This document shows, one piece after another, positions 10,833 to 61,395 of a stretch of 64,000 bases of DNA. This DNA comes from a virus (taxonomy: Duplodnaviria; Heunggongvirae; Uroviricota; Caudoviricetes): IMG/VR virus record IMGVR_UViG_3300021400_000048, positions 120,791 to 184,790 of that record; one strand, 5' to 3'. The stretch's first letter is position 1, and every line of letters starts with the position of its first letter. A program made the position numbers and the translations under genes. Under the pieces are notes generated by a model that was given only the letters and a program-made list of their open reading frames with translations, ran no database searches and was not told where the DNA came from.

Positions 10833-11148
10833 CAGCTTCAATATACTCCAGCACTTCAAAAGTTTCTGTATCTGCTAATTTATTTTCTAAATAAGATGTT
10901 TCATCATAATATCCAGAATTTAAATACTTAGATATTTCAATAAAGATAGCTGAGCAAGAATTGCCTGTACAAGTTCTAACTGTTTTAGCTCCACCTTTAT
11001 AATTAATTACTAAGTATTCTGAAACACAATCAAAATCCTTATTTCTAAGTACAATATAATCAATGCTCTCAACATTGTCTTGGACTTTAGTAATTGCTTT
11101 ACTAATACTGTGTACAAAATTAACTTTTTTATTTAAATATTCTTTCAT
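10825..11148 (-). CDS. hypothetical early protein
   Basis: TAATG-coupled start. Confidence 0.75.
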   Translation of the reverse strand: MKEYLNKKVNFVHSISKAITKVQDNVESIDYIVLRNKDFDCVSEYLVINYKGGAKTVRTCTGNSCSAIFIEISKYLNSGYYDETSYLENKLADTETFEVLEYIEADE

Positions 11149-11681
11149 TAGCATAGTTTGTCTCCTGTAATTAAATTGACTATTGTATTTAAATCTTCTT
11201 CAGGAATAGCTCTATATAGCCAGCCTGTTCCATAAGTATATTCAGTACCATCAGATAATTTTACAGTTAATAAATTATTTTCCTCTAAAGCTTTCTTTGC
11301 TTCTGAATAATCATATCTTATATTTTCTGCTTTGAAGTAGTCATCAAGAAAAGCTTCTTGCTCTTCAGTGCCGGCATGCATACTATTTAAATGATATTTT
11401 TTCCATAATGTATAAATAGCTTTAAATTCTGGTGTATCTACATATTTTGCAATCTCATCTAGACATTGACCACCACAATAAATATCCGAATGAATATGAT
11501 TCCAAATACGACCGCTAGCAGTAAATTCAATTTTATTACCTTCTCTTAAATACAAGTTAATTGTAACGTCTACAAGATTAGCTTTTCTTTTTGATCGATA
11601 AGCAATTTTACCAAATTTAAAAGTCTTACTAATTCGACCACCGCTTACTAATAATAAGTTTAAAACTTCTGATTGTGTCAT
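11148..11681 (-). CDS. hypothetical phage protein (GQCLDEI..LWKKYHLNSMHAG..YGTGW)
   Basis: AAGGAGG RBS; first gene after promoter 11712. Confidence 0.8.
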   Translation of the reverse strand: MTQSEVLNLLLVSGGRISKTFKFGKIAYRSKRKANLVDVTINLYLREGNKIEFTASGRIWNHIHSDIYCGGQCLDEIAKYVDTPEFKAIYTLWKKYHLNSMHAGTEEQEAFLDDYFKAENIRYDYSEAKKALEENNLLTVKLSDGTEYTYGTGWLYRAIPEEDLNTIVNLITGDKLC

Positions 11682-50353: not shown

Positions 50354-53300
50354 TTATTTTCTAGTTGCTAATCCTTCAACTAAATGTTCACCAATAGTGT
50401 ATTTATAGCTCATACTTTGTGGTACTAAGCAAGATTCTTTTAATACACAGTTAATTCTAAAGTTTCCATCTTCAGAAAGTGCTTTATTATAACCTTCTAA
50501 AATTGCTTTGCCTTCTGTTTTAGCTGCGCTTTCAAATACATATTGAGTTTTTCTTGTTTTGCCAGAATTAAAGTTAATAGTTCCTTCAACAATAAACTTA
50601 TTATCTTTTAATACACATTCATCTAATGTAAAGCTTTTAACATTTTCATATGTCTTACATAATGCTTCTGTAATGCATCCTTCAAATGCTTTTTCATCTG
50701 CTTCATCAACATTTTCAAATACTTTATTAATATTACATTCTGCTAAAGCATTTGGATCATTTAACATATCATCAAATGCTTTACTGTCAACTAATTTATC
50801 AAATTCTGCATCAGAAACTTCATTAGATGTATTATCAGCTTCTTTTAAAGATTCATCAAAATCTTCATCTTCTTCATCTTCTTCTTCAGCAAGACCAAGA
50901 TAACTTAAAATATCTTCACTATCAAACCAAAGAATGTCATTAAGTTGAACCATTTGAAGTCCTTCTGGATAGCATTCTTCAAGGTATTCTTCAAGTTGGT
51001 CTAACTTACCTGCATCTTTAATTTTATTAAAAGTATCAACAGCACCAGACCAAGGTGTATAATCACTAATATCTGCAATAATCTTTAAAGCTTCATCTAA
51101 TTCAGCTGGTTCTTCAACAGGTTCTTCAATAACTTCTGTTTCATCAACAGCTTCTTCATCAGCTACAGGTTCTTCAACTGGCGCTTCTTCTTCAGTTGTT
51201 TGTTCTTCAGTTTCAACTTTTTCTTCTACTGCATCAGCAACTTTTTCATCAACTACTTCAGCAATTTCTTCAGCTTGTTTTTCAGCTTCTTCTTCATTTT
51301 CAACTGGAGTGGATAGAGCTTGAGCAACGTCAGTAGCGACTTCTTTAACTTCAGATGTAGTAAAATCTACTTCAGGAAGTTCTTCTTTTTCTTCAGTTTC
51401 TTCAACATCAGTTTCTACAGGTTCTTCAACTACTTCATCAGCTACTTCTTCAGTTTCAGCAGCAGCTTCTTTTAAACTTTCATCTAAACCAAATTGTTTT
51501 CTTGAAAAACCATATTTTGAAGAATCCGCATCACTAACAAATTTTTCTCTATAGAATTCTTCCATATTATCTACTGTACCTCTAAATACATAAACAGGTA
51601 AATTTGAGTCCTCATTTTCTACAGAGACAATTTCAATGTTATATTCTTTAGGGTCATAATCTAAGCCGCCGGCACAAGTAATTGGTTGAGTTGTAATTAT
51701 GCGAGCAGATTCTTCTAAAGCAGCTTCGTTTAAAGTTAAGTTTTCAGAATCATTTTCTGCACAATGTTTTTTATCAACATCTTTTTGAACATCAGCTTTA
51801 TTTAAAGATTCTTCTACTTCAGCTGTTTCTTTAACTAAAAATGTTGCAGGATCAACTTGCTTTAAGTTTTCTCTAGAATATTTATCAAATAAATAATCTA
51901 TTGCATCTTCCGGTTTTAAGAAATCATAATATCCTTGTGCTCAGTAACCAGTTGTTAAATCATAACCGGCACCTAATGCATAGTCATTTGATTTAGGTCT
52001 ATATACAACTACGTATAATCTACCTTTATCATTTTGATATAAGTTTTTAACTTCAAAGCCCATTTTTGAAGTAGTTAAGAAATCTCTATTAATCCCCTCA
52101 GTTAAAGATTCATTAATAGCTTTCTTTGTAGTAGTTTCTTTAGATTCTACTTTTTCAGTTGTTTCTTCATCATCTGCTACTTCAATTTCATAACCAGGTT
52201 TAAATTTTTCATATTTATCAAGAGCAACTTCATAAGTTTTGTTGTCTTCTTTATTTTTAAATACTCTACTTACATAAACACCGATTACATCATCATTGTT
52301 AGCTAAAAGTTCATCTCTAATTGTTTTAACTTTTTCAGGAATAGCAGCAGCTTCAACTTCTTTTGTAATAATTGTATTATATAATTTATCTATACCAAAT
52401 AACTTATATTTGCCGCCAGCATATGGACAATTTTTACCAGCCTTCTTTGCATCTAAACAAGCTTTCTTAATATCTTCATAATTGATAAGAATTGTATCAT
52501 CATCTACAGCTTCTGTAATACCTATAGCAGGTTTAGTTTTTGCAGTTGTAGTATTATTTTCACCGCCTCAATTTTTTACAAAATTATCAAAGGTTTTATC
52601 AATTTCTTTAGGGTCAATGTCTTTATTGCCTTTATTTAGTAAATCTTTAATTTCACTTAGTGTTAAGGCTCTTAACTGATCAGCAAGTTTTTTATCACCA
52701 TGAGCTCTTAAAGCTTTAATAAGTGCTAGTTTTTCTTTTTGCTCAGCAGCTGTTTCCACTCCTGCTGGTAGTTTTTTATCGTCAGCTACATTAACATCTT
52801 CATTTAGTCCTCAAGAATTAATAACTGAATTAATAATATCATCGATTTCTGATTCTTTTAATTCTTGTTTACCACATTCACAGATTTTTTTTCCGCATTT
52901 TTCACAAACTGTATTTTCCTCTTTAATAGGTGTTTCATGCTCAGCTTGTAATTCATCTTGCTTAGCAGCTTCACCTTGTTCCTCTTTTAAAGATATATCT
53001 CTATCTAAATAAGGGAGTACCCTAAGAATAGGTTCAACAAAACTGCCTATATTATATTTTTTAGCTATTGAATCTACTTCTGATAGCTTAGGAACAATAC
53101 CCTCTTTTGCATATTTTATAGCTAATTGAGCAAGTTCTTTTTGAGCTTTCTTATAATTATCATAATAGCTATTATCATTAGCAAAATCTTTATTGGTTCA
53201 ATTTGCCCAGTCGTATACAGGAGACTTTTCAAAGATTAGTAAATCCTCATATGGCTCTACAGTTTTAGCTAAATCTTCATTTAAAGTGATATTTTCAGAG

Positions 53301-54007
53301 TCGTTTTCAGAGCAGTGTTTCTTATCAACATCTTTTTGAATTTCTGCTTTATTTAAAGATTCATTTGTTTCTTCTTCTTTCTTTTCTTCAGGTTCTTCTT
53401 CAAAGTCTAAGTCTAAAACATCAAGGTCATCAATATTTTCATCTTCTTCTGTTTTTTCAGTTTCTTCAACTTCTTCAGTTTCTTCCTCTGGTTTTTCTTC
53501 GAAGTCCTCAGTGTCAAAGTTATTTAATTCAGCTTCATCAACTGGTGCAACTTTACCGATTACCATATAGCCTGAAGTATTTCCACAGTGTTGACAAGTT
53601 TCATTAATATTAACAACATCTGGATTGTTTTCATCAACTTCTAAATCTTTTTCATCTTTATAGAATAAAGTCATACATTGAGGACATTGAATAATAACTT
53701 TACCTTCATAAGAAGTTAATAGGTCATCTTCAGAGTCTGCATCTAAATCAACAATTTTTTCAATCCTTGCTAATTTTGCTTTAGCAATTTCAGCTTCTCT
53801 TTCATCAGCTGCAGCTTCTAAATCATTAGTATCATTAACGTCATAATAGTCTTCAATTAAAACATCAGTTCTTAATTTTCTGTTGCCAAAACTTTCTCTT
53901 AGGTCAATTCTGTTTGGTAAAATTCCGCCTTCGACTTTTGGATATTCCATTTCGTCTAGTGCTTTAAATGCTGCACTTAAATCAAATTGTGTTACAGATT
54001 TTTTCAT
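50354..54007 (-). CDS. very large acidic head-associated protein (1217 aa, code 4)
   Basis: four TGA join track ORFs 53198-54037, 52568-52759 and 50354-51565; many (I/L)-x-E motifs; duplicated 29-aa segment. Confidence 0.8.
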
Positions 54008-54026
54008 ATTTTTATTTCTCCTTATT

Positions 54027-54755
54027 TTAATCAACATAAGCTATTAAATTGCTATTAGCAATAAGCATATCTTCTAATTCTTTTTTCTCTGTATTTCCTT
54101 CATTTAATAATGTTTCACCATCCATTGTTCACAAAGCATTTGATTGTGTAAATCTTGTTCTAATTCTTCCTAAAACTATTTTAGTTCTAGCAAGAGCAAG
54201 TCTTTGTAAAACATCTGTTCAATATTCATCTTTGATTTGTTCTACTTGTAAAAGTTTAGGTACATATTCAACAGTAACCATATCAGGTTTACTTAAAACA
54301 CTATTTATATATAATTTATTATTTGTTTTGTCTAGCTTAAAAGATAAGTCAGTAGATATTGTATTTTTAATTCTATTTAACTCGGCATAGGCAGCATAAT
54401 TCATAACATAATCTTTTAAAGAATACATTGAACCATTTCCACTACTGAAGATCATTCATTGTTGCATATAAAGTGGGTCATTATAAGCATTTTCTCCAGT
54501 AGCAGCACCCATAGCTTCTGTTCTATAAAGTTTTACAATATGATTTACTTTTTCTTTCAAATCTAGTTCTGAATCTGATAAATCAATACAAGAACTAAAT
54601 GGTATTGTAACTAAAGTTGTTTCATCATAATACTTATCAAGCTCCCTTAAACATTGTTTAATAATTAGCTCAATAGTAGCATCTTCTATTTCAAGTTCAA
54701 GCACGCCACCTGTTAATTCAAGTTTGATTTCATCAAGTAGATCAACCATTGTCAT
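54027..54755 (-). CDS. neck protein, T4 gp13-like (242 aa, code 4)
   Basis: W(TGA)TDVLQRLALARTKIVLGRIRTRF..MDGETLLNEG..EKKELE; GGAGG RBS. Confidence 0.8.
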
Positions 54756-54782: not shown

Positions 54783-54870
54783 TAATTTAGCAAATATAAA
54801 GTAGCAATTTGAAAGAAAATGAAAAAACTTTCAATTTTTTCAAAAAACTATTTTTTACGTATAATTTAGC
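54783..54870 (-). promoter_or_regulatory. two tandem putative late promoters GCTAAATTA
   Basis: 54783-54791 and 54862-54870. Confidence 0.65.
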
Positions 54871-54979
54871 AAATAAATAATTAAGAAATTTTAATATTAA
54901 ATTAATAAACTATTAAGTTTATATAAAGTAAATAAAAATGCGATATAGGCTAAATTTTAAGCCTAAAATCGCATTTTTA

Positions 54980-55768
54980 TTATAAGCCAATATATTGGCT
55001 ACCAATATAAGAATTTTGTTTTTTATCTTGTTCCTCTAAAGTTTTTTGTATAAGTTCTTGGGGATTTGCTGGCATATCTTTATTTTTTACAATATATGCC
55101 TGAATAATATTTGTATCTCTAATCATTCTATTAAATGGTCTGACACATTGTCGTGCTCAAGTCGATGGTGCTTGTTCTTTAGCATTCAAAAATTGTGTAC
55201 ATTTAATACCAACAGGTGGCTTAAATTCAAGTTCACTATATTTATGATGTAATAGACAAGCAAAAATACTATCTTCAAATCCTTCATTTTTTTGTGGATC
55301 AATATTTACCATTGGCTCTTTTTTATAGATGTACTTAGAAATAGCACATAAGTTTAATTGTGCTGCGCAATAAGGGTGATATTGACTATTTTTTCCCGGC
55401 ATAAAACAGAAGCCATTTGGATTTTTATCTAATAAATTCATATACTCTATATGAGCATTATTTGTTGTTTCAATAATAGCATCATCATCAAACATAATAA
55501 TATAATCATAATCCAGTTTTAGAAATTCTTCTCTTAAAGTTTGACGAGCTTTTAAAATTCCAAGTTCTGGATAGATTTTTATTATTTGTTTATTTGCAGT
55601 TTCAATTGGCTTAAAGTCTTTTCAATTTTGTGCAATAACTAAAATATCAATATCTGGTCATAAATCATTTAATTGTTTAAATAATCTATTAATTCTTTCT
55701 TTTCTTTGTGTTCTAGCTGGTTCTTTATCTGGTAACCAACTAGGTATTCCAAAACATTTCTTTAACAT
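54980..55768 (-). CDS. GT-A fold (family 2-like) glycosyltransferase (262 aa, code 4)
   Basis: LGILKARQTLREEFLKLDYDYIIMFDDDA DxD-type motif; three TGA. Confidence 0.8.
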
Positions 55769-55794
55769 ATTCTTTAACCTAGTAAAATTCCTTT

Positions 55795-56850
55795 CTAATA
55801 AGATCAAAAATTACCTGTATAGTAATTTTGTGAATTTTTTGTTTTATTATTCTTGTGCTCATGAATATTAATATAATTCAATTTTTTATATGGTAAGTCT
55901 ATTAGTTCAAAACTAGACTTATTTGGAAGTTTTTGTTGTAAAAAAGTTAATAAATTATTTTTACACACTTCAAAATTATCAACAGCTGCTGTATCATTAA
56001 AACAAATCATTTCACAATTATTATATTGTGTAAAATCTGTTCAAGAGCTAATCGCTACATAAGCAGAATTCTGATAAATTCTATTATTAAGCTCACCATA
56101 ATTTGTATATTTCATAGCATCAATATAAAGTAAAGATGGAATTAAATTTTTTGGGTGTCTAAATCTTGATATACTCATAGCTGTGTAAATATCATTATAG
56201 TATTTATTCATAAAGTCTTGTTCAAAGCTTTTTAGCTCACCATCAGGCAAATGGCTATAATGATAAAATTTATCTACTGGCTTTTTAATTATTTTTGATT
56301 CTAAAAATTGATTATTATTACTAATAATAGTTTCTCAAATTCTATTACCACAGCTTCAATTTTTAGCTCTATATCCACTAAAGCCTTGTTGTATTTTACC
56401 ATTTTTATTAAAAAATAAATTTTCTGGAATATTATTTATAAAATAAAAATCATCATTAGAAACAATAAAATGCTCGCTTAAATCAGGTATTCTATAATAA
56501 AATGCTTCAATTATTAATGTACTAAAAACTGGCAATAATTCAGTTGGAATAAATTCTTCGTGTAATACTATACGAAGCTTTGGATTTGTTTGGTCTAATC
56601 ATGTGGGAATTTGACTTTTTCTTTGTACTACTAAAAATACTTTATTTACTCATGGGCAATTTTGTTCAACACCCCTAAACCAATATCTAAAAGCTTCTCA
56701 ATCTCTAACGCGTTCTTTTGCAAAAGCTTGAGCATTTGTATTTTGCTGAATTCCTAACGCTATTTCTTGTTGTTTATATTTATTAAAGTCAGCCTGTCAA
56801 GCTTTATCATTTTCATCTACATATGGTACAATAATATCAATAGGAAACAT
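55795..56850 (-). CDS. Stealth-family sugar-phosphate transferase (351 aa, code 4)
   Basis: IDIIVPYVD..D..W; RVRDW..FRYWFRGVEQNCPWVNKVF; IPTWL; IPDLSEHFIVSNDDFYF; most Trp are TGA. Confidence 0.88.
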
Positions 56851-56852
56851 AT

Positions 56853-57566
56853 TTACTCCTCAAAATTTAAAAATTCTTGTATTGACATTGCTTTATCATC
56901 AACATAAAAATCTGCATTTTCTTTACCAAATAATAATTTTGTATATTTAACATTATATTTTTTAAGTCATGTTTCAGTAATAGCTCTATATTTGTGCTCA
57001 CGAGCAGCTAATGTTTTACAACTTTTAGCTCCACGTGCAGTATATAAAATAATAGTTCAACCATTATCATATAGTGTATTTATTTTATTAATTACATCAA
57101 GATGTGGAGTTGAATTCTCAAAATCACGGTTATATGTAGTTAAAATAGTATCATCAATATCAATAACAAAAGTTTTAAACTCATAGTTATCTATTAATTT
57201 TGTTTTAAGATCTGTTGTAGAAATACCAGCTGTTCGTTCAATAAAAATTACTTTAGCATATTTTTCGATATCAACAATGTCTTTATAACCTTTATAATCA
57301 CTACCAATTGCAAATATATCTATATTATTATTTTTTAGGTAGTCTATTTTATCTTCTTGGCTATTTAATAATATAACTTCATCAACATATTTTATAGCTT
57401 CGAGAATAGTTTTTCTTTCATTTGCTGAATTTATTGGAGTTTTTCCTTCAGGAGCTACATTTACGCCGACAATTAAATAATCGCCAAGAGCTCTAGCCTT
57501 TTTTAGAAGATTAATGTGGCCGTAGTGTAGCAAATCAAATGTTCCAGTTGTAAATACTTTGATCAT
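56853..57566 (-). CDS. TagD-like cytidylyltransferase fused to HAD phosphatase (237 aa, code 4)
   Basis: GTFDLLHYGHINLL (HxGH); DIDDTI, GW(TGA)TIILYTARG, W(TGA)LKKYNV, YVDDKA. Confidence 0.9.
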
Positions 57567-57594
57567 GTACTATTCTCCTTCTTTATCTACTGTA

Positions 57595-57603
57595 TAATTT
57601 AGC
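57595..57603 (-). promoter_or_regulatory. putative late promoter GCTAAATTA heading the glycan cassette
   Basis: upstream of AAGGAG RBS. Confidence 0.65.
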
Positions 57604-57701
57604 AAATAAAAATACGACCTGGATTAAATTTCAAGCCGTATTTGTCAAATTAAGTAATTGGGTTAAATTATTATTTTGACCAGATTGTTATATTCGTTAG
57701 A

Positions 57702-58388
57702 TTAAAATAATTCACAAATGTACTCCCAAGCATCCATATAATGCATATTTTCAAAGTCTGACTCTTTTAATCTATCACTATTATAAAATTTTTTAAAGTT
57801 TTCTTCCTTGGTTAATACTTCATTTGTAATATTTTTGTTACCTTTATAAATCTCAACATTATTATCATCAAAAGATATACAAGTATATGCTTCTGCTAAA
57901 GCATCTTCAAATGACTCAAAAGTATTTTCCATATATGTATCGACACCGGGAAGACCATTTTCATCAAAACATCCAAAGTCTTTATAATAATAACTAACAG
58001 TATAAATATCATCAGGAACTTTTTCTACTAATTTATCCTGTAAAAATTCAAATAGCTCATCAATATCTTTACTAACTTCTTTTTTGGCTTTTTTAATAAG
58101 CTCAATAAAGGCATCAATTTCATCTGCAGGATCATTAAATTCATATGATTTTACTCATAAACCGCCAAATTCAGTATTGCACTCTAGTTTAGCATTTAAA
58201 TAAAAATCAATAACTTGACAAAGACATAGACTATCATTAACTTCTTCTTCATCATCTTCAGCTTCTACTATCTTATACCAAGATATATTACTATCAAAAT
58301 CGTCTGCTCTTTTATAGCCTCTTGGTAATAAAAATTTTTCTATAAGTTTAATTCCAAGTTCTTTATCATATTCAAATTCATTAATCAT
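57702..58388 (-). CDS. acidic hypothetical protein (228 aa, code 4)
   Basis: two track ORFs joined in frame by TGA 58155. Confidence 0.75.
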
Positions 58389-58520: not shown

Positions 58521-59933
58521 TTATCTATTCCAAACATATGTTGCTTGGCCACAGTCGTATATTTCAACAAAACCTGCTTGGATCATTAAGTCTCTATTAT
58601 TAGATATAGCTAAATTATCATCTTTTGCATCACAATGATGAATTAATCTTGAAAATCCTTGCTGACGTAATAAAGCATCTGTATAATGTTCTTTTGTTTG
58701 TACATTATACCAGTGTTTAGATGGTGCAGTTTTTCTTAAAAGCTTAAAATTAAGTTTATTATAAGTATTACCAGAAAACTTACTTAGATCACAATAACTT
58801 ATAACTGAATTTGGTTTATATGTTTCAATAAAATATTTAAAAAGCTTTTCTGCACCGCCAATAACTTTTGCATTTGAACAATATCTAATTAATTCATACT
58901 CATAATTTTTATTATAACGAGGCTTACCAAAAGTCATTACAGATACTAGTTCATTTTTATAAAATAAACCAATTTTAATTGTAGACTTTGCAGTTCCTTG
59001 TAAATGATATTTAATTAAAAACTCATCACTTGTTTTCTTATCAAGTTCTTTTATATTACATAATCTACCATAAATAGTTTTTTGATTATTAGCAAGTAAA
59101 TTAATAATTTTATTCTTATCATCCCAGTCAAATATATGAATACATTTAAAATTATGATTATTAGCAATTTCTGTTTTTGTTTTATGATATATTTTTGAAA
59201 GTGGCGTATTATATTCAAAAGGTGTAAAAGTAGAATTATGTGTAAAAGTAGGGTTAATTTCTACAAGAATTTCACCAATCTTAAAATCAAAGAATTTTTT
59301 ATCTAAACAATATTCTCTTTCAAAATTAATCTTATAGTCTTCTAATAATTTTTTAAATTGTAAATTTGGTTGACTATCTTTTTGATTGTAACTTTGGCCA
59401 TCTTTAAAACGATTTTTTAATACTTCATTTTTTTCATCTTCAGATAAGCTATTCCACCAAGCCTTCATTGATTCACTTCTCATAGCATCTTGTTTTGCTT
59501 TTTCTTCTGGTGATAAAGAGGCTCTATAAGCTTTATTAGAAGCTGCTTTTGTTTTAGCATATGTTGGATTTAAATGTGCTAAAGATTGCTTAATTGACCA
59601 AGCTTCTTTTTCTTCAATAGATTTATTTTTCCAAGACTCTTTTTGTGTTTCAGCTGATTTTTTTCCGCCTGCTATATAACTTTCATGAGTTCTTGCAGCT
59701 GGTTTACCTTTATACTTTGATGGCTTTTGTTTTGAGAAATCATAATTAAATAATTTTAATACTTTAGTAAGTTGTTTAACTGTTCTTAAGCCAAAGTGGT
59801 TCATAGTTTCTTTTTGATTATGATAAAGATAAAAATTAATAAAATCTTCAGCTGATATAGTTGCAGTTATATTATTAATAATCTCTTTATTTAATTTTTC
59901 AATTTCTAGTTGCTTTACATATTTATCTGTCAT
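58521..59933 (-). mobile_element. free-standing Hef-like homing endonuclease gene
   Basis: NUMOD3-like helical repeats; FEREY..FDFKIGEILVEIN (PD-(D/E)xK-like); IYGRLCNIKE..HLQG..ELVSVMTFGKPR..YELIRYC. Confidence 0.75.
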
Positions 59934-60093: not shown

Positions 60094-61395
60094 TTAGTCA
60101 ACGATCTTACCAGCAACTAATAGACTCTTGTTTAATAGAGCTTTAGCATACCAAGTACTGAAACCTTGCATTAATCCACCATCAGGTGTACCAAGTAATT
60201 GAGTTGGAACGATTGCCATGTAAGGTGCATATACACCAGCAGAGCTCATCATATCATTTCCGTTTAAGCCTAGGAAGAATTCGCCTTTACCTAGTTCTGG
60301 AGAAACGTATACAGCTACGCCATCAATTTCACCAACTTTGTAAGGACCATTCATCTTAGCGTTCTTAACTGGAGTCCAGCCATTAACGAAACGTAATACT
60401 TGTAAGCAGTCAGCAGCAACTACCATGTAGTTAGGATGGAATTTCTTAGTTCTAGTATAGATGATAGCTTTAGCAGCTTCAAATACTTCTAAGAAACCAT
60501 TGTAATGTTCGAATTTAGAAACGCCGACAGGAAGAGTCTTAGAGAATGTTAATTCAGGAAGAGCTTCACCAGCACCTTCTTTTAACATATTAACGATTTC
60601 AGAGTCAATTTCAAATGCTAATTCACCACAAGCTTGTTCAGCGATTTGTTTGTCTAATGAGAAACCATAATCTGTTTTAGCTTGGAATGCACTGATTTGG
60701 TCATATTTAACAGCAATTCTTCTTGGTTCAGCAACTAATGCGATGTGTTCCATCTTTGGACCAATTGAAGGAATATCTTGAGCTGGAACATAGTTCATTT
60801 GGAATTGTTTTGCAACATATGCAACTTTTACAGCAGCAGCATCAATTTCATCACCATAAACATATGTACCATCAGCTTTAATTGATTTGTAAGTAGCAGT
60901 TTTGATTGCACCATTTTCTTCATAAGTTAAACCATTTGGTTCAGCTTCGAAAGCTAATCCAGAACCAACAGCTTCAACGATAATTTGAGAAGTGTAGTTT
61001 CTACGAGCTTCACCAACTTCGCCTAATCCGAATACACTGTTGAATTCATCACCTTGAGTAATTCCACCTTTATTAGTAGTAGCAACATACTTTAAGTATG
61101 CAACTGATCCACTGTAAGAAGTCATTGGGTGTACAATTACTAAATCATTAGCGATTAATGATGGAACAGCAATATTAGTTAAGTTTAAGCAGAATTTCTT
61201 CCATGCACCTAAATCACTTCTTTGAGTTGCAACTGTATCTAATGCTTCAGTAATCCATCTGTTTGTATTATCTAGTAATACAGCAGTAGTTAATTTAGCG
61301 TTATCTGAAACAACTTTGCCATCAAAGTTTTTAGCAACGTATGCTTCAGCAACTTTAATTTGTCTTGAATAAGTTTCAAGTAAATTTTGTCTCAT
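60094..61395 (-). CDS. major capsid protein, T4 gp23-like
   Basis: VHPMTSYSGSVAYLKY, AEPRRIAVKY, ELAFEIDSEIV, GVYAPYMA; AGGAG RBS. Confidence 0.92.
   Translation of the reverse strand: MRQNLLETYSRQIKVAEAYVAKNFDGKVVSDNAKLTTAVLLDNTNRWITEALDTVATQRSDLGAWKKFCLNLTNIAVPSLIANDLVIVHPMTSYSGSVAYLKYVATTNKGGITQGDEFNSVFGLGEVGEARRNYTSQIIVEAVGSGLAFEAEPNGLTYEENGAIKTATYKSIKADGTYVYGDEIDAAAVKVAYVAKQFQMNYVPAQDIPSIGPKMEHIALVAEPRRIAVKYDQISAFQAKTDYGFSLDKQIAEQACGELAFEIDSEIVNMLKEGAGEALPELTFSKTLPVGVSKFEHYNGFLEVFEAAKAIIYTRTKKFHPNYMVVAADCLQVLRFVNGWTPVKNAKMNGPYKVGEIDGVAVYVSPELGKGEFFLGLNGNDMMSSAGVYAPYMAIVPTQLLGTPDGGLMQGFSTWYAKALLNKSLLVAGKIVD

Follow-up and report, generated by a model that had tools for sequence, protein, structure and literature searches.

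A cassette of three contiguous genes in a rumen phage raises the question of what a virus does with enzymes akin to those that build teichoic acids and capsules, and of how they came to lie among its head genes. The phage is represented by a complete 223,464-bp record with direct terminal repeats (IMG/VR record IMGVR_UViG_3300021400_000048), of which the stretch of 64,000 nucleotides (nt) at genome positions 120791–184790, referred to here as the window, was analysed. The window has a GC content of about 28%, and nearly all of its genes are found on the minus strand. The cassette occupies window positions 54980–57566 and, as had been stated in an original prediction for this DNA, is located in the head–neck cluster, between a gp23-like major capsid gene and a gp13-like neck gene. 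Its products are predicted to be a TagD-like cytidylyltransferase (CT) fused to a HAD phosphatase (CT-HAD), a Stealth-family phosphotransferase and a GT-A-fold glycosyltransferase. We propose, with a probability of about 0.5, that this cassette is responsible for a late, cytoplasmic phospho-glycosylation of a virion protein.

The genes are apparent only in a modified genetic code. With translation table 11, the interval 54980–57566 yields nothing more than open reading frame (ORF) fragments of 44–169 amino acids (aa); with table 4, in which TGA encodes Trp, it is read as three contiguous minus-strand ORFs, so that the earlier description of three TGA-rich genes, the last two of them broken up by code 11, was borne out. 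The reading of TGA as Trp is well founded, because two TGA codons of gene 2 align to conserved Trp residues of human GNPTAB, because the phage genome encodes a tRNA-Trp with the anticodon UCA (genome positions 11081–11155, outside the window and within the phage tRNA gene region), which is likely the TGA suppressor, and because of the codon counts, with 13 TGA and 2 TGG among the Trp codons of the cassette. Since 13/15 of these codons are TGA, the cassette should be translatable only late. It has been described that the recoded genes of such phages are structural and lysis genes, and that their TGA-free class with host-type promoters includes the replication genes (Borges et al., bioRxiv 10.1101/2021.08.26.457843).

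Gene 1 (56853..57566, minus strand; 237 aa, 2 TGA) encodes a TagD-like CTP:phospho-alcohol cytidylyltransferase domain (residues 1–125) followed by a capless HAD phosphatase domain (128–237). Residues 6–122 match PF01467 (1.5e-23), and the best solved relative of the N-terminal domain is Bacillus subtilis TagD (1coz, 2.4e-26), with ethanolamine-phosphate cytidylyltransferase (3elb) at 1.1e-23. The TagD nucleotidyltransferase motifs are present and intact, HYGH at residues 14–17 (HxGH) and RTAGISTT at 111–118 (RTxGISTT), and H14, G16, H17, R111 and T112 are invariant across 40 gene-1 homologues. On these sequence grounds the domain is TagD-like and is not assigned to the TagD substrate class, 3elb scoring nearly equal to TagD. 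Moreover, the score against the NCBI TagD model TIGR01518 (112.1 bits) falls under the equivalog cut-off of 165.4, and an assignment of CDP-glycerol as the product is not supported. An ADP-heptose (HldE/GmhB) reading, suggested by PHROG names, was rejected as well, with TagD at 112 bits vs 73 for rfaE domain II and no GmhB model among the matches.

The C-terminal 110 aa of gene 1 belong to the HAD phosphatases, with TIGR01689 (EcbF–BcbF capsule biosynthesis phosphatase, 1.5e-14) as a model match at 54 bits, below the subfamily cut-off of 162, and with 9iqw and 1xpj as related structures. HAD motifs I–IV are all present, including the nucleophile motif DIDDT (136–140), and D136, D138, T140, T176, K215, D223 and D224 are invariant in the same 40 homologues; the domain is too short to accommodate a cap domain. 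A HAD phosphatase inside a glycopolymer assembly line is found in Haemophilus influenzae type b (Hib) Bcs3, whose CrpP has a cap domain (PMC10299916). CrpP was discarded as a relative of the gene-1 HAD on account of this cap and of the lack of a sequence match, and serves as an analogy only. The CT-HAD fusion is very common, with 6,192 proteins at E <= 0.001, all of them unnamed and metagenomic. TagD-like genes of cyanophages and roseophages have merely been listed as auxiliary genes, their role not being known.

Gene 2 (55795..56850, minus strand; 351 aa, 8 TGA and 1 TGG) encodes a Stealth-family phosphotransferase, this family being represented in Pfam by PF11380, PF17101, PF17102 and PF17103. 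The Stealth CR2 region (PF11380) scores 112.4 bits vs a cut-off of 39.4; CR4 reaches 20.8 bits, below its cut-off of 27.4, and CR1 and CR3 are not reported by Pfam. As in GNPTAB, CpsY and the meningococcal capsule polymerases, the NDD motif and the CR3 histidine can be aligned, the phmmer alignment with GNPTAB extending through this histidine. The matches to solved structures are GNPTAB (9bgg, 1.2e-18) and Mycobacterium tuberculosis CpsY (8j2n, 3e-16). D133, D134, H200, R231, N285 and D286 are invariant in 41 homologues, and the N-terminal D5, Y10 and W18 are conserved. Both the CT-HAD fusion and the Stealth protein had been recognized correctly at the outset. Known Stealth enzymes transfer hexose-1-phosphate from a UDP-sugar. 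Unlike the cellular members of the family, to which it is about 30% identical, gene 2 is compact and is fused or coupled to a CTP-dependent nucleotidyltransferase in its relatives. No tblastn match to gene 2 was obtained in 50,697 isolate phage records, and literature searches found no study of phage Stealth proteins.

Gene 3 (54980..55768, within the ORF 54980–55807, minus strand) comprises 262 aa and 3 TGA when read from the ATG at 55768, which is most likely its start since the homologues begin there. Searches with Pfam, PHROG and NCBIfam (E <= 0.01), GT2 models (PF00535 and relatives) included, and with PDB sequences gave no match, and its 188 homologues are all metagenomic and without a name, the family being found so far on phage-like contigs only. 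The AlphaFold model has a predicted local distance difference test (pLDDT) value of 92.5, and Foldseek aligns it to the GT-A enzymes WrtF, EXTL2, TarP and RfbF with probability 1.0 and a template modelling (TM) score of about 0.5. The model has 192 PDB matches at E <= 0.001 and, among the matches listed, most are GT-A enzymes and a few are nucleotidyltransferases of the same fold. A DXD motif, D94–D95–D96 (DDD), directly follows the strand 89–92 and is invariant in 32 homologues. By its predicted fold, gene 3 is a GT-A-fold glycosyltransferase; of the earlier GT-A/GT2 assignment, the fold was retained and the GT2 family was not, there being no sequence match to it.

The connection between the three genes is provided by their relatives. 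In close metagenomic relatives, CT-HAD and Stealth occur as single polypeptides of 567–576 aa, 56–62% identical to gene 2, and Stealth and GT-A occur as single polypeptides of 577–590 aa, 63–71% identical to gene 2. When the CT-HAD–Stealth junction was read from the DNA of three loci, the linker of about 20–40 residues contained neither a stop codon nor a TGA, indicating that these fusions are genuine. The existence of both kinds of fusion in close relatives implies that the three genes act in one pathway. In the relatives, the island consistently ends with a gene of the gene-3 family.

The cassette also appears to be expressed as one late unit. The single late motif that had been reported before it, TATTTGCTAAATTA, is a late-class promoter motif at 57595..57608 (minus strand), 29 nt upstream of the gene-1 ATG. 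This 14-mer is present in 7 exact copies in the window, all of them on the coding strand, intergenic and between 27 and 58 kb, in the TGA-recoded part, and the number of matches with at most two mismatches was reached in none of 100 shuffles. Two more exact copies (54783–54796 and 54862–54875, minus strand) precede the downstream gp13-like gene and, by driving it separately, would make the cassette a transcription unit of its own. Directly after the gene-3 stop (54930..54979, minus strand), an inverted repeat, AAATGCGAT ... ATCGCATTT, is followed by a T-rich run. Read by eye from the sequence, this hairpin is probably the terminator closing the three-gene unit; a simple terminator scan did not list it. 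Within the unit, 2 nt separate the gene-1 stop from the gene-2 ATG, whose ribosome-binding site, GAGGAG, is contained in the last part of gene 1, and gene 3 starts 26 nt past the gene-2 stop. The upstream late motif, the downstream hairpin and T run, the TGA-rich codons and the tRNA-Trp(UCA) together assign the cassette to the late class. The coverage by RNA contigs of the source sample is limited to a part of the capsid gene and is uninformative on cassette expression, and a goat-gut run, in which the flanks were covered, the cassette hardly, and the joints had short sides, was not used as evidence.

In the mechanism that we propose, a self-contained, late, TGA-dependent operon of soluble enzymes would build a small phosphodiester glycan on a virion protein during assembly. 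The TagD-like domain would convert a phospho-alcohol and CTP into a CDP donor, CDP-glycerol being the leading candidate and CDP-ethanolamine or a related compound being possible, and the fused capless HAD would take phosphate off a precursor or the growing product. Stealth would make the phosphodiester link, using either hexose-1-phosphate from a UDP-sugar or a phospho-alcohol from the CDP donor made by its neighbour, and the GT-A enzyme would contribute a sugar, which may be the residue linking the glycan to the protein. We infer the acceptor, the donors and the order of the steps; gene structures, domains, motifs, TGA use, fusions and contexts are read directly. The teichoic- or capsule-like phospho-glycan that had been envisaged for this locus is a fair description of the chemistry that these enzymes imply.

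None of the three proteins has a transmembrane-like or hydrophobic segment, the top 19-residue hydropathy being 1.35. In the complete 223-kb genome, no match was found to PF00953, PF02397, PF01943, PF04464 or PF04991, ABC-type exporters not having been searched; an initiating transferase, a Wzx-type flippase, TagF and LicD are all without a match. TagF and LicD had also been sought in this genome as users of a CDP donor, and neither was found. These data bear on an alternative in which the cassette would remodel a surface polymer of the host, transferring glycerol- or sugar-phosphate onto wall teichoic acid, capsule or a flagellin glycan by means of a host carrier and host export. Such an activity could block superinfection or keep the progeny from sticking to debris. 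It is true that TagD, TagF, LicD and Stealth act on bacterial envelope polymers, and that the bacterial Stealth capsule polymerases are likewise devoid of membrane spans. However, besides the lack of a match to an initiating transferase, a flippase, TagF or LicD, the late motif, together with 13 in-frame TGA codons, restricts expression to the last part of the lytic cycle, when little time is left for export and assembly. We regard a role at the host surface as unlikely.

A virion acceptor is favoured by the distribution of CT-HAD in small, unrelated phages of standard genetic code, where the fusion (~60–65% identical) is located inside the head module in the company of at least four capsid types. 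The gene order in locus L043 is terminase, GT2, CT-HAD, MobA-like, portal, protease and HK97-type capsid, and L132 shows the covered part of the same order. L129 (identified by family search) and L125 (identified by matching gene sizes) contain GT2, CT-HAD, MobA-like, scaffold and major head protein; in L127, CT-HAD, MobA-like and GT8 are followed by the major head protein, and in L134 a P22-like portal is followed by CT-HAD and LicD. The 214-aa gene after CT-HAD in L043 was considered as a small Stealth and rejected, as it has no similarity to this family and is weakly MobA-like.

All six of these small-phage loci encode a capsid protein with Ser-Val or Ser-Leu at its C-terminus (L043:7434-8609, L129:10477-11340, L127:4307-5224, L132:6229-7416, L125:6557-7414 and L134:5521-6546), and five of them encode two additional proteins, of connector or tail size and among them products of downstream genes, that terminate in the same way. 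Altogether, Ser-Val or Ser-Leu ends are found in 16 of the 92 genes of the six loci vs 1 of 147 in the other CT-HAD loci. Judging from this sequence pattern, the tag is a candidate acceptor for virion glycosylation in the small phages. The presence of CT-HAD homologues in head modules with C-terminally tagged virion proteins speaks against the host surface as the target. Of the two options originally left side by side, coating the virion or remodelling the host surface, the first is therefore better supported, by the soluble enzymes, the lack of a carrier or flippase match, the late TGA use and the small-phage Ser tags; the tie to the head itself, as opposed to insertion at a hot spot, did not find support, and neither did the purposes that had been suggested, immune camouflage and superinfection exclusion.

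The hot spot is delimited by two conserved genes. On the left is the gp23-like major capsid gene (60094..61395, minus strand; PF07068, 2.5e-24), and on the right is the gp13-like neck or head–tail adaptor gene (54027..54755, minus strand; phrog_211, 1e-16), whose ortholog in locus L001 carries PF26809, Phage_T4_gp13. In two sets of fetched loci, one centred on relatives of the GT-A gene and the other on relatives of the capsid gene, the order protease, capsid, variable interval, gp13-like, long variable protein and 169-aa protein is conserved. The variable interval is empty in many of them, with about 130 nt from the capsid gene to the gp13-like gene, and its content differs between phages where it is filled: 1–4 GT-A paralogs, GT2–Stealth fusions, GT8 and GT92-like enzymes, a pyruvyl-transferase–glycosyltransferase fusion, BspA-type leucine-rich repeat (LRR) proteins, homing endonucleases and a DNA methylase. 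A stand-alone TagD-like gene and a TagF-like glycerophosphotransferase are found in the L006 interval, and CT-HAD and Stealth in that of L016. The GT-A family adjoins the capsid or prohead protease gene in most of the loci found with it and, in a second subclade, a GT-A gene immediately precedes the prohead protease gene. In this head–neck hot spot, the cassette is to be regarded as accessory cargo and not as a core assembly function.

Several observations weigh against virion glycosylation in this phage. Its capsid protein ends in KIVD and lacks the C-terminal Ser tail that was considered as the acceptor here, and Ser-Val or Ser-Leu ends are not found on any structural protein of the genome. 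Relatives with the island cannot be told from those lacking it by their capsid C-termini, nor by the C-termini of the gp13-like and 169-aa proteins. Among 30 capsid-sampled loci with enough flank, 24 are without glycan genes within 10 kb. The position of the cassette may reflect a permissive hot spot alone, where homing endonucleases, LRR proteins and a DNA methylase are inserted as well, and a head function is not proven by position. In addition, some homologues are surrounded by genes of replication or nucleotide metabolism: a Stealth and GT2 pair is coupled to DNA polymerase A, and a CT-HAD–Stealth fusion is found among dUTPase, UvrD and gyrase genes.

The last contexts lead to the possibility of DNA hypermodification, in which Stealth and the glycosyltransferase would put a sugar- or glycerol-phosphate on a hydroxylated base as a protection against nucleases. 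There is a precedent in the DNA of Bacillus phage SP-15, which carries phosphoglucuronate on dihydroxypentyl-uracil, and such an adduct would be in line with Stealth chemistry, in which a hydroxyl receives X-1-phosphate. The nearest isolated phages by capsid protein are Bacillus SP-15, Listeria LIS04 and Bacillus HSE3 at ~30% identity, SP-15 being the nearest at 31.6%, and distant homologues of the cassette adjoin genes for DNA polymerase A, dUTPase, gyrase and nucleoside deoxyribosyltransferase. However, SP-15 has no Stealth match at E <= 1, its capsid-to-neck interval consists of one hypothetical gene, so that this link was abandoned, and no phage of the isolate collection matches gene 2. 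The sole thymidylate-synthase-family gene of our phage has an ordinary score (177 bits vs a cut-off of 108, TIGR03284), and therefore no source of a hydroxymethyl base was found. The cassette belongs to the late TGA-recoded class and not to the TGA-free host-promoter class. Moreover, the islands of the relatives, with up to eight or nine glycosyltransferase domains and a pyruvyl transferase, are unlike base-modification sets and fit better with an exposed, diversifying glycan than with a DNA base adduct. In our estimation, modification of DNA keeps some weight but is less likely still than a role at the host surface.

The cellular relatives of gene 1 provide a link between its domains and protein glycosylation. 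In a scan of one genome per prokaryote species, matches came almost only from Lachnospiraceae and other Bacillota. In 57 of the 58 loci that span 12 kb or more, the HAD domain forms the C-terminus of a NeuA-like cytidylyltransferase (36–45% HAD identity for the closest relatives) and, within 8 kb in these 58 loci, Maf flagellin glycosyltransferases were found in 35, flagellin in 25, NeuB in 25 and TagF-like genes in 26. In five genomes, a TagD 47–50% identical to the phage CT domain follows a TagF-like gene in the same island. By sequence comparison, the cellular genes closest to either half of gene 1 are those of Lachnospiraceae flagellin-glycosylation islands. This kinship indicates a Lachnospiraceae host, and the host is probably a member of this family. 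The islands tie the CT and HAD domains to the cytoplasmic glycosylation of a self-assembling protein.

The same kinship with flagellin-glycosylation genes can be counted in favour of a host-surface function, as can the Stealth homologues of Lachnospiraceae, found in 28/301 genomes at ~30% identity, which are located beside GT2 and sometimes TagF-like genes, outside the flagellin islands. On the other hand, no member of the GT-A family of gene 3 was found in the 301 Lachnospiraceae genomes, which argues against it. As a separate observation, the island at L253:3674-13235 (also L190, L191, L204, L230 and L235) contains flagellin, two Maf, NeuA-like–HAD, NeuB with a cupin, TagF-like and TagD genes; the presence of TagF-like and TagD genes in such Lachnospiraceae islands suggests flagellin glycans bearing glycerol phosphate.

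Virion glycosylation of the kind proposed has few precedents. Freeman et al. reportedly described in 2023 the glycosylation of mycobacteriophage virions (Che8, Corndog and Myrna), located C-terminally on capsid and tail tube proteins, and to our knowledge virion glycosylation has been experimentally shown for a few mycobacteriophages only. The cassette resembles that system in its phage-encoded soluble glycosyltransferases, accessory in some relatives, with a presumed cytoplasmic decoration of structural proteins; the small CT-HAD phages resemble it in the C-terminal Ser tag on proteins of capsid and tail size. Unlike the mycobacteriophage system, the cassette adds a CT–phosphatase fusion and Stealth, so that its product should hold phosphodiester links, the host is probably a member of the Lachnospiraceae, and the capsid of this phage is without a C-terminal Ser tag.

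The flagellin islands of Lachnospiraceae hold the closest relatives of the gene-1 domains and, like the cassette as proposed, combine glycosylation with a CDP-glycerol branch. They differ from the phage, which has no Maf, NeuB or NeuA, in which the HAD is joined to a TagD-type domain rather than to the NeuA-type domain of bacteria, and whose transferases are Stealth and a phage-only GT-A. The synthesis of wall teichoic acid and capsule (TagD with TagF or TagB; Bcs3) shares with the cassette the supply of a CDP-alcohol beside a phosphotransferase. In contrast to these pathways, the phage shows no match to a lipid-linked primer function, to export (ABC-type not searched) or to TagF, its HAD is capless, and the acceptor is probably a protein.

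The partner of the cytidylyltransferase varies between phages, being TagF-like in L006, LicD in L134 and Stealth in this phage, in L016 and in the fusions. CDP-alcohols are known to be used by enzymes of the TagF-like and LicD kinds, and this exchange of partners hints that the present Stealth subfamily may use a CDP donor too. Unlike known Stealth enzymes, gene 2 holds the place that TagF-like or LicD enzymes have in sister cassettes, and by analogy a CDP-alcohol may replace UDP-hexose as its donor. A more specific version, which we find rather doubtful, would have a CDP-alcohol-dependent Stealth subfamily lay glycerol-phosphate units, as in teichoic acids, on a sugar added to a virion protein by the phage-only GT-A, giving a coat that resembles the flagellin or wall glycans of the host. 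If this were true, a widespread, undescribed pathway of virion decoration would have one step for which Stealth, TagF-like and LicD enzymes can replace each other.

Other genes around the cassette complete the picture of the hot spot. Upstream, an orphan 228-aa gene with 1 TGA and a host-type promoter (57702–58388, minus strand) remained unmatched in Pfam, PHROG and NCBIfam, and none of the related loci that were fetched carries a homologue of it. The space separating the cassette from the capsid gene also contains a TGA-free gene (58521–59933, minus strand) for a 470-aa homing endonuclease of the HNH type, one stretch of which is weakly Mom-like; its homologues are found at the same hot spot in the relatives L017, L044, L047, L061 and L115. 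Each of these two genes is preceded by a hairpin resembling a terminator and by a host promoter of the TTGTATAAT type, and neither belongs to the late unit. The Trp codons of the homing-endonuclease gene are 0 TGA and 7 TGG, and those of the major capsid gene 0 TGA and 4 TGG. The major capsid gene is TGA-free here and in every relative examined, although TGA is frequent in the late genes on either side of it, and avoidance of the recoded codon seems to be a feature of late genes with high expression.

Directly after the gp13-like gene, a 1227-aa protein is encoded at 50354–54037 (minus strand). Its first ~170 and last ~120 residues are kept across the relatives and its middle is swapped from phage to phage, a sequence pattern in keeping with a neck or collar fibre whose centre is exchangeable. 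BspA-type LRR proteins stand beside glycosyltransferase genes in the capsid-to-neck hot spot of several loci (L011:5556-7399; L049, L061, L103, L107 and L113) and, elsewhere in this genome (genome positions 99632–102426), an LRR protein with a Gly-Ser tail, encoded at 101197–102426, adjoins a GT92-like gene.

The new elements found here are the CT-HAD module and its fusions, the interchangeable phosphotransferase partners, the Ser-Val/Ser-Leu tag of small phages, the kinship with flagellin islands and the facultative hot spot. If virion phospho-glycosylation is correct, large and small phages of gut and rumen Firmicutes would also decorate their particles, with phosphate-linked units, and this would affect how hosts, animal immunity and mucus see these phages. 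It would also give an assayable function to the CT–phosphatase fusion that matches 6,192 unnamed metagenomic proteins, and it would allow the acceptance of CDP-linked donors by Stealth enzymes to be tested. In the small phages, the Ser-Val/Ser-Leu tag shared by capsid and tail-size proteins is a concrete candidate acceptor. Finally, the flagellin-glycosylation islands are a possible source of the phage module, and the link to them indicates the likely host family of an uncultured 223-kb phage.

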